From: Cyanidioschyzon merolae
Taxonomy: Eukaryota
NCBI GenBank assembly: GCA_000091205.1
Contig: AP006488.2
Reading direction: 5' to 3' (one strand)
DNA: 64,000 nucleotides
Shown here piece by piece: positions 35,366 to 36,275 of the stretch (the first letter of the stretch is position 1; each line of letters starts with the position of its first letter). The notes beneath the pieces are model-generated. The model had not been told where the DNA came from, did not search any database, and saw only the letters and a program-made list of their open reading frames with translations. The position numbers and the translations under genes are program-made.

Positions 35366-35729
35366 TTGTCGGCTCAGACGCAGGTGCGCAGGTTGCAGCC
35401 TCTCAAAACTCCCCAAAGAGCGTGACCTAGCGAAACCTGTGAGGCTGCAAGTGGCGCTCGAAACGGAAGCTCGAGAGCGCTGCAGGACCCTTTGGGACTC
35501 GGACTGGTCTCACAGAGTGCACTTGGCCTCAACCGCAGCAAACAAAATCGTTCTGTCTGTGAGAACAGCGCTTGATCAAGTTCAGCAACAGAGGGTAAAG
35601 CTCGTGCGGGCTTAACGGCAGTGCCAGCCGCTTTCGTCAACCCACTGCTGTGACAAGCAACTCTTGCAGGAGTATATGCTCAGTAAAACAAAAAAAGTTC
35701 CACAGCCATGGAGGGTACAGAAAACCCAT

Positions 35730-35981
35730 TCATAGAAATCTCCAAGCTTCTTGTGACCGGCCGGCTTCTACTGATTTTGTTTTATCCAGGCATACCTCAT
35801 GCCTGGGAGGCTGCCCCAGAAAGTTGGATTGCGTCAGCTTCGAGGGTCTCGTCTTCAGTACCGCACAGCTCCTTATATTGATGGAGGCGTTGAAGTCTCG
35901 GTTCACAAACCCCATGCTTTGATGGCCTTTGATGGAACGCTTCAGAGGAAGGATTGCCAGAACTCGTCCCCCCTGTGTCAA
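35730..35981 (-). pseudogene. TnpB/Fanzor-like RuvC-III remnant, copy A. The homologous noncoding flank extends roughly 35650-36200.
   Basis: GFVNRDFNASINIRS matches the TnpB/Cas12 RuvC-III signature D-x-N-A-A-x-N-I. It is homologous at DNA and protein level to 44846-45094. No CxxC zinc finger. Non-ATG track start. Stop 20 codons upstream in frame. Confidence 0.4.
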
Positions 35982-36275
35982 TGTATTCTCGTCGTGGTCC
36001 CGTCGGACAAGCGCCTTATCTCGCCGATCCCCTCACTTCTTCTTCGTCTTCGTCACTGGCTCGTCTTAGCTAGATGGTCGGGGAGGAGACGATTTTTGGC
36101 TTTCTTTCGACAGCCAGCAATGGTGGCCCTGTAGGATCCCCGACTTTCATGTCCATGGCTTTCCCTTGGATTTTTTATTTCTTCAAAATGAACGCACTTC
36201 TTTATGCCCTAATGTGAGGACGTTTCCGACGCGATTAGGACTTGCGGAAGGCAGAGAACATGTGCTCCGGGTGAG

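Follow-up and report, generated by a model that had tools for sequence, protein, structure and literature searches.

Does the nuclear genome of Cyanidioschyzon merolae harbor a family of Fanzor nucleases, and what are the two short sequences that raise this question? Our window, the 64-kb stretch of DNA analyzed here as a whole, is part of chromosome 6 of C. merolae 10D, an intron-poor red alga, and four of its long open reading frames (ORFs) are exact C. merolae 10D proteins (AP-1 gamma subunit BAM79462, myo-inositol dehydrogenase BAM79464, CMF087C, and CMF088C). A preliminary description of the window had reported two homologous copies of a short peptide bearing the RuvC-III signature of TnpB, Cas12, and Fanzor nucleases, and had read them as remnants of an element whose intact relatives might exist elsewhere. 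The remnants are real, and they lead to an element family with a published history. The questions that follow are how these copies arose, which of their ends could encode a guide RNA, and by what means their lineage may have moved.

The two peptides are encoded on the minus strand in copies that we delimited by blastn and by homology to the published CMe-1A element. Copy A occupies ~555 nt at 35675-36229 and copy B lies at 44722-45329; in the locus first given for copy B, the 3' end had been drawn ~120 nt too short. Within the 64-kb window, blastn aligns the two copies at 67% identity over 534 nt (E 2e-37), a similarity that on this alignment is far above chance and that is even along the whole stretch, the peptide region being no exception. 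The peptide of copy A is MGFVNRDFNASINIRSCAVLKTRPSKLTQSN and that of copy B is NELVKRNFNAAVNIIRGSVLKTRPEELTRSN. Copy A keeps the catalytic D (35895-35897) of its RuvC-III motif, NRDFNASINI (35874-35903), whereas in the motif of copy B, KRNFNAAVNI (44921-44950), the change from D to N noticed earlier is plainly seen (44942-44944). VLKTRP follows the motif in both copies, again as first described. The ORFs present are of only 83 aa (copy A) and 82 aa (copy B), and copy B is frameshifted after RSNL, with its tail LRLEECLEKRKPIAGDRSK resuming beyond (conserved tail LRLE.CL.K.KP.AG.RSK).

Two copies proved to be an undercount. A third deletion derivative, copy C, occupies 20328-20898 of the plus strand, where it is supported by blastn, by its translation, and by matches to CMe-1A, and two divergent pseudogenes considered further below were likewise overlooked. 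Copy C matches A and B by blastn at E 2e-30 to 8e-36 and is 66% identical to copy A. Its RuvC-III motif, NRDCNAAVNI (20670-20699, plus strand), is followed by two in-frame stops, the translation reading MEFINRDCNAAVNIIQ-stop-VAL-stop-TRPEELAKSNF. Copies B and C have a common 5' neighbor of ~70 nt or more that is unlike that of copy A.

The suggestion that a Fanzor family exists in this genome was well founded, and the family is one that has been named. CMe-1 of C. merolae appears in the 2013 paper that defined Fanzor1 and Fanzor2 (Bao & Jurka, Mobile DNA 4:12; PMC3627910), which contradicts the earlier statement that Fanzor elements of algae are only recently recognized. In that account CMe-1A has ~150 copies in C. 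merolae, some of them intact and each ~80% identical to a 3169-bp consensus that codes for a one-exon, 734-aa Fanzor1 protein; it lacks inverted repeats, its target duplications are undetermined, its transposon class is called unknown, no transposase is listed, and its 5' 635 bp are shared with TE-N2_CMe (PMC3627910). Taking the CMe-1A consensus from Additional file 2 of PMC3627910, we found 92-96% identity between it and a consensus of long copies, described below, which codes for the same 734-aa protein.

Copies A-C match CMe-1A only at ~786-969 and ~2849-3084, with 68-79% identity. Copy A matches positions 869-969 and 2901-3012 (72-79%), copy B 786-969 (77%) and 2864-3010 (68%), and copy C 832-895 and 2849-2971; the CMe-1A start codon is the ATG at consensus position 906. 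At the protein level, the window copies match only residues 1-58 and 638-726 of the CMe-1 protein (CMe-1p). Compared with CMe-1A, none of A, B, and C has the 5' 635 bp of TE-N2_CMe or the complete 734-aa ORF. The window sub-lineage also differs in having VLKTRPEELTRSNF where CMe-1A has VLEKRPPELTRENF, in an internal deletion of ~1.76 kb, and, for copy A, in a DDE_3 transposase pseudogene that replaces the TE-N2 part. What the window copies and CMe-1A have in common is the genome, the family, and a divergence of ~20% from consensus. By these alignments the window copies are members of the CMe-1 family already described in C. merolae, and the original finding is both correct and already known.

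How the window copies relate to a complete element was revealed by relatives in metagenomes. A protein-database search with the three window peptides yielded only six short fragments, all from JGI metagenomes. Scanning metagenome contigs with conserved stretches returned 315 relatives, and 80 loci were kept. Full-length relatives of ~2.4 kb occur in hot-spring metagenome contigs. When the nucleotide profile of the window module is laid over 27 long metagenome copies, it breaks into a 5' and a 3' portion, such that module positions 1 to ~145-250 sit ~1.8-2.25 kb upstream of positions ~260-503. Because of this split in the 27 long copies, we regard the window copies (~560 nt) as internal-deletion derivatives of a ~2.4-kb element.

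The anatomy of the deletion can be given with some precision. When 13 non-redundant short copies, with A, B, and C included, are reduced to a consensus, the missing ~1.76 kb corresponds to CMe-1A positions ~1076-2834, or codons ~58-643. On the 5' side the window copies have kept the leader, with the start codon and ~57 N-terminal codons after it, and beyond the deletion they have kept the last ~90 codons together with the 3' end. Both ends and the deletion junction are common to all 13 non-redundant short copies, which argues for one deletion event that was later multiplied. The identity of the three window copies to this consensus, to which they contribute, is 77-80% (A 80%, B 80%), and short copies in general lie ~20% off the consensus and ~33% off each other. 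RuvC-I and RuvC-II are missing from all three window copies, in which the RuvC-III block alone is left, reading RD in copies A and C but RN in copy B. Furthermore, in the short-copy consensus the start codon is out of frame with the C-terminal remnant, and there is no common reading frame. Since RuvC-I and RuvC-II are deleted, stops and frameshifts are present, and copy B carries the change from D to N, the window copies are unable to be nucleases. The best reading of all three is as inert relics, which belong to a Fanzor family by their sequence but are not functional members of it.

The long copies disclose the protein that the short ones have lost. When 18 non-redundant long copies are combined by majority, the consensus is a single 759-codon frame with one stop and a K/R-rich N-terminus. 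It contains RuvC-I (GADPGNTN within FVVGADPGNTNII), RuvC-II (DEFRTS within VTIPVDEFRTSYTHH), and RuvC-III (NRDFNAAINI within EFVNRDFNAAINIRRCAVLEKRPPELTR), and the ordered triad of D, E, and RD is found in this consensus, in CMe-1p, and in the metagenomic protein P0007. P0007, the best protein recovered, has 752 aa, is 78% identical to the consensus, and ends shortly past RuvC-III. In the 87 loci searched for one, no intact ORF runs through the motif, the longest frame being 165 codons. The expectation that intact copies may exist elsewhere is borne out for C. merolae by the published account (PMC3627910); in the sequences analyzed here no intact 10D copy was seen, and all 27 long metagenome copies are disrupted by stops or frameshifts. 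Introns were considered as a source of the fragmented long-copy ORFs and rejected, as neighboring frames overlap and the published protein is encoded by one exon.

The search with the consensus also found two relatives at 31-32% identity, and a profile of P0007 and these two relatives retrieved 94 proteins, ~35 of which are from the green alga Haematococcus lacustris. In a 65-sequence alignment of full-length relatives, D385, E550, and D594 are near-invariant. The fold was tested on one relative, P0038, which is 31-32% identical to the CMe-1 consensus protein; its AlphaFold2 model, built on the 65-sequence alignment, has a pLDDT of 92 and a pTM of 0.88. A Foldseek comparison of this model with the PDB placed Fanzor1 structures at the top, as full-length matches (E 1e-19 to 3e-15, TM 0.57-0.73): PpFz of Parasitella, SpuFz of Spizellomyces (among them 8GKH, solved with omega RNA and target DNA), and GtFz of Guillardia, whereas Cas12 variants rank later and only at E >= 1e-5.

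The RuvC-III reading of the window peptides is upheld by their collinearity with a Fanzor1 element and by comparison of profiles: when the profile of the three window peptides is aligned by hhalign with the RuvC-III block of the family (65 relatives), the probability is 97.7% and E is 1.4e-12. By other routes the relationship is barely visible. Neither the short peptides nor the small profile built from them matched any Pfam or PDB sequence entry at E <= 10, and a Pfam scan of the 82-83-aa ORFs and nine family fragments gave no TnpB-related match. Even at full length, Pfam TnpB models stay below threshold on CMe-1-type proteins, PF07282 giving E 0.2-1 (at the RuvC-III motif, 0.96 for the consensus and 0.23 for P0007); phmmer with the 759-aa consensus against the PDB returned only a spurious angiogenin match. 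One of the 94 relatives, P0089, does pass the threshold of PF07282 (Cas12f1-like TNB). For a family of the CMe-1 type, searches with one sequence or with a small profile lack the necessary power.

The full-length paralogues foreseen in the preliminary description were to have RuvC-I, RuvC-II, and a zinc finger. RuvC-I and RuvC-II are present in the consensus and in CMe-1p, but a C4 zinc finger between RuvC-II and RuvC-III was not found: CMe-1p has just HH...C...C there, and the 65-sequence alignment has no conserved cysteine quartet in this interval. The C4 zinc finger is part of the Fanzor motif, and CMe-1 was still placed in the Fanzor1 clade (PMC3627910). By homology with characterized Fanzor1 enzymes, the full-length CMe-1 protein is predicted to be an RNA-guided DNA endonuclease.

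We therefore hold it very probable that the two stretches first pointed out belong to the CMe-1 Fanzor1 transposable element as decayed, non-autonomous copies with an internal deletion. On this reading, a full CMe-1 element extends ~2.4 kb from leader to 3' end and encodes one intron-less protein of ~734 aa, a eukaryotic TnpB homologue with a RuvC D-E-D active site; the predicted source of its guide (omega) RNA is the element's 3' end. An ancestral deletion of ~1.76 kb took codons ~58-643, including REC/WED, RuvC-I, and RuvC-II, so that the last ~90 codons and the 3' end now follow directly on the leader and N-terminus. The short form then multiplied, presumably moved in trans as the ~550-nt ghost elements of Spizellomyces are, and each short copy has since drifted by ~20% from the consensus.

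The part of such an element that would encode a guide RNA is not where it was first sought. The flanks at 36120-36200 and 45170-45260 had been taken for a non-coding, guide-RNA-encoding end. They are indeed alignable, but they are the homologue of CMe-1A ~869-969, that is, of the 5' leader, the ATG, and the K/R-rich N-terminus (MDM.V.D...KK.K). The remnant start codons are those of MDMKV at 36156 in copy A, within the N-terminal remnant MDMKVGDP (36133-36156, minus strand) homologous to the CMe-1A start region, and of MDMEV at 45205 in copy B, within MDMEVEDL (45182-45205, minus strand), where tblastn with CMe-1p residues 1-58 matches 45205-44990. Because these flanks are the 5' leader and the omega RNA of Fanzor and TnpB systems comes from the 3' (right) end (PMC10432273), this is the wrong end for a guide RNA. 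In GtFz1 the omega-RNA scaffold overlaps the last 17 codons (PMC10432273). By analogy, the guide-RNA end would be at ~35675-35790 in copy A and 44722-44850 in copy B.

The 3' ends of the family contain several candidate stems. In the last ~100 nt of the long copies, one stem lies around the stop codon (GGCGTCT/AGACGTC) and shows a double compensatory change in one copy, and a middle stem is variable (GCCGCCA/TGGCGGC versus GTCGCCA/TGGCGAC). These are accompanied by a terminal hairpin of 8-16 bp, which occurs in two variants, AACGTTTTTC-TTTT-GAAAGGCGTT and CGTTGGCGTCGTTCGA-CTT-TCGAACGGCGTTGGTG, that pair in different registers. The terminal 40 nt of the long copies have a mean best-stem score of 7.7, compared with 4.75+-1.1 in shuffles, and the right arm of the hairpin reaches 4-10 nt past the published consensus end. 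In the window, copy A has a hairpin just inside the element end (GTGGAA, 9-nt loop, TTTTAC; 35683-35703, minus strand), and the corresponding hairpin of copy B (GTGAAA, 9-nt loop, TTTCAC; 44730-44750, minus strand) consists of Watson-Crick pairs throughout.

Across 19 copies, the 6-bp hairpin of the short type has 83% of cells paired, versus 37-56% with a slid partner, a count that is inflated because the hairpin was read off those same sequences. Four of its six pairs are changed on both sides in these 19 copies, and its covariation score is 0.42, versus 0.33+-0.04 in shuffles, 8 of 500 of which reach it. Folding energies point less clearly to structure. The z-scores of minimum free energy average -1.07 for the terminal 105 nt and -1.41 for an upstream coding control, and since the copies share ancestry we do not count them as evidence. 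RNAalifold found no convincing consensus of the 3' ends in MAFFT alignments (-2.35 kcal/mol), its failure to yield a usable consensus being due to misalignment of the variable stems, and an Rfam scan of the whole window matched no family. Taken from these sequences, the evidence for a 3'-end hairpin is moderate only, and the hairpins fit an omega-RNA scaffold and a DNA signal for transposition equally well.

These hairpins bear on the possibility that the short copies are live, with a 3' end that yields an omega-like RNA used in trans by intact CMe-1 proteins, which might for example maintain or mobilize the short elements. The same two ends and junction in 13/13 non-redundant short copies speak for it, as do a 3' hairpin kept with compensatory changes and the terminal hairpins of the long copies, and Spizellomyces has 134 comparable ghost loci (PMC10432273). 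However, short copies that differ by ~20% from their consensus and by 33% from each other have not been recently active. The lack of a convincing RNAalifold consensus also counts against live elements, the pairing count is inflated as stated, and the hairpins could equally be DNA signals. We consider it improbable that the window copies are still in use in this way, and decayed relics remain our preferred reading.

It is far less credible that the 82-83-aa ORFs are functional small genes, that is, a domesticated C-terminal fragment of a Fanzor protein. Open frames of this length do exist in copies A and B, and related metagenome loci with frames of 121-165 codons have been called as genes. Yet two stops interrupt the frame of copy C, the tail of copy B is frameshifted, the consensus has its start codon in one frame and the C-terminal part in another, DNA identity is alike inside and outside the frame, and a RuvC-III strand without RuvC-I and RuvC-II provides no catalytic site. 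Finally, that the RuvC-III likeness is a coincidence within a repeat of some unrelated element, a reading to which the empty sequence searches with short peptides might lend color, is refuted by the collinearity of the repeat with both ends of a Fanzor1 element, by the hhalign E of 1.4e-12, and by the Fanzor1 fold of the family, and its probability is close to nil.

With the window copies taken as CMe-1 relics, the 5' side of copy A offers a hint of how the family may have moved. A pseudogene of a Tc1/mariner-type DDE_3 transposase (36260-37148, minus strand), recognized by Pfam and by homology to an unrelated locus, L001, is fused upstream of copy A, and the two form a composite of ~1.5 kb on the same strand. 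Copy B has another 5' neighbor and is without DDE_3. The Pfam DDE_3 match falls on the ORF at 36276-36479 (E 8e-7, 29.4 bits versus a cut-off of 28.6). Over 894 nt, the pseudogene has 69% identity to the corresponding arrangement in L001, the translation of which matches DDE_3 more strongly (E 3.9e-13, 49.9 bits) and is also a pseudogene.

The junction is recurrent. A DDE_3 gene lies 50-85 nt upstream in 6/13 non-redundant short copies, and in the fetched loci 29 of 34 DDE_3 C-termini are followed by a Fanzor module within 200 nt, although this frequency is biased, since having a Fanzor module was the criterion by which loci were chosen. By our own grouping of the locus list, those 29 junctions represent about ten distinct sites, one of which has a full-length copy (L029); the junction of copy A thus recurs at 9-10 loci besides its own. 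A comparison of the 5' boundaries of six composite copies with their 3' boundaries revealed no consistent terminal inverted repeats, nor were TA duplications found, and the absence of inverted repeats is weak as negative evidence because the copies are old; target-site duplications of the short copies were not found either. Judged from these arrangements, our results suggest that a mariner-like transposase once carried the Fanzor lineage of copy A.

Such an arrangement has a precedent. In PUl-1 of Pythium ultimum, as in the copy A composite, a Tc1/mariner transposase gene is followed by a Fanzor1 gene in the same orientation, and this Mariner-Fanzor1 layout has been described for PUl-1, not for CMe-1A (PMC3627910). 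PUl-1 differs in its 24-bp terminal inverted repeats and its TA duplications, neither of which was found for the Cyanidioschyzon composites, and every Cyanidioschyzon copy seen is a pseudogene.

The short form itself has a parallel in Spizellomyces. Spu-1 of Spizellomyces punctatus (PDB 8GKH) and CMe-1 are both Fanzor1, SpuFz having a TM of 0.67-0.73 to a member of the CMe-1 family at a sequence identity of just 14-16%. In each, the element has one ORF, and full elements are accompanied by many derivatives of ~550 nt that lack it; in Spizellomyces, 134 ORF-less 'ghost' elements of ~550 nt have been reported (Saito et al. 2023; PMC10432273). Spu-1 differs in its 30-nt inverted repeats, none of which were found in the Cyanidioschyzon copies. 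By analogy, the short Cyanidioschyzon form looks like a counterpart of the Spizellomyces ghosts. Bacterial TnpB of IS200/IS605 is a more distant parallel: like CMe-1, it is a RuvC-type nuclease with the RuvC-III motif RD.NAA.NI, and its omega RNA is coded at the right end, overlapping the 3' end of the gene. CMe-1, in contrast, resides in a eukaryotic nuclear genome, its structure is closest to Fanzor1 rather than to TnpB or Cas12f, and no TnpA-like ORF lies nearby.

The window also preserves traces of what may be an older layer of Fanzor1 elements. Pseudogene D (15609-17039, plus strand) covers CMe-1p residues 217-699 with fragmented ORFs and contains a RuvC-III-like QDLDASINT at 16917-16943; in tblastn it is matched by CMe-1p at 26% identity (E 1e-26) and by the protein P0059 at 27% (E 1e-32). 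Pseudogene E (48185-49079, minus strand) corresponds to CMe-1p residues 418-698 (tblastn E 2e-22) and is of the same divergent lineage, with ~40% amino-acid identity to D (tblastx E 7e-23). Together, these alignments speak for the presence in C. merolae, for which one Fanzor1 lineage is listed, of a second and much older one.

Combining these observations, one may envision that a Tc1/mariner (DDE_3) transposon carried the Cyanidioschyzon Fanzor1 and that the ~560-bp ghosts keep a structured, putative omega-RNA-coding right end that is usable in trans. We put this forward as a tentative proposal that, on present evidence, is rather unlikely to hold as a whole.

Since a Fanzor family in C. merolae was on record from the very paper that gave Fanzors their name, and since the copies in the window are defunct, their discovery is in itself of little import. 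The analysis has several by-products of wider use: a precise anatomy of the short 'ghost' derivative, a terminal hairpin beyond the published consensus end, a second, older Fanzor1 lineage in the window, and a recurrent junction between a mariner-type transposase and Fanzor that bears on how the unclassified CMe-1 family moved. C. merolae is easily transformed and has very few repeats, and the coordinates given here can be used for studying the natural role of Fanzor. If it is true that these elements were mariner-borne and that their ghosts are used in trans, C. merolae would be a natural in vivo test of the service that a Fanzor renders to its transposon, one to which this genetically tractable alga, with its tiny and almost intron-free genome, is well suited.

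Two decayed pseudogenes in the window extend the Fanzor1 content of Cyanidioschyzon merolae beyond the family of CMe-1A (the published consensus). Pseudogene D (15609-17039, plus strand) and pseudogene E (48185-49079, minus strand) were recognised by amino-acid similarity to the CMe-1A protein, CMe-1p, and to P0059, a relative from the protein searches. They share 26-34% amino-acid identity with CMe-1p and P0059 and about 40% with each other, and translation of D yields a RuvC-III-like QDLDASINT at 16917-16943 (plus strand). Judged by these similarities, D and E are a second Fanzor1 lineage, far more divergent than CMe-1; only one Fanzor family was recorded for C. 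merolae by Bao and Jurka (2013, PMC3627910).

The CMe-1 Fanzor1 family also has dozens of members annotated as hypothetical proteins in the green alga Haematococcus lacustris (P0097-P0132), with matches at E values of 1e-53 to 1e-6. Unrelated Pfam domains are fused to some of these proteins in the gene models, and such fusions are probably mis-annotated transposon ORFs. For many family members, the Pfam column of the protein search results carries a precomputed match to PF26935.1.

Fragments resembling the 5' part of CMe-1A, which is shared with the element TE-N2_CMe, lie at 47847-48024 (81% identity) and 5987-6085 (75% identity), both on the minus strand. The former fragment and pseudogene E share a strand, with the fragment about 160 nt downstream of E's 3' end, an arrangement resembling the insertion of one element immediately past the end of another.

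In the undeleted long copies of metagenome loci (e.g., L026 from 2564 onward, L016, and L035), the right arm of the terminal hairpin runs past the consensus end, from ...GGCG into TTGGTG, and pairs with upstream CACCGTTGG, so that the true 3' end appears to lie 4-10 nt beyond that of published CMe-1A. At the other end, the deleted relics B and C (45253-45355, minus strand, and 20270-20317, plus strand, respectively) stay alignable past the position at which relic A diverges, over some 70 nt or more farther upstream. In copy C this stretch, directly before the module, forms a hairpin whose arms, each of 21 nt, show 76% complementarity; it may be a 5' end structure.

A Tc1/mariner-type DDE_3 transposase pseudogene precedes the Fanzor module by 50-85 nt at roughly ten distinct loci (our own grouping of the locus list into distinct sites), including window 36260-37148 (minus strand), L001 4900-5800, and L029 2165-2810, the last of which has a full-length Fanzor copy. 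This arrangement suggests that the ancestor of the CMe-1 family, published as of unknown class (Bao and Jurka, 2013, PMC3627910), was a mariner-Fanzor composite.
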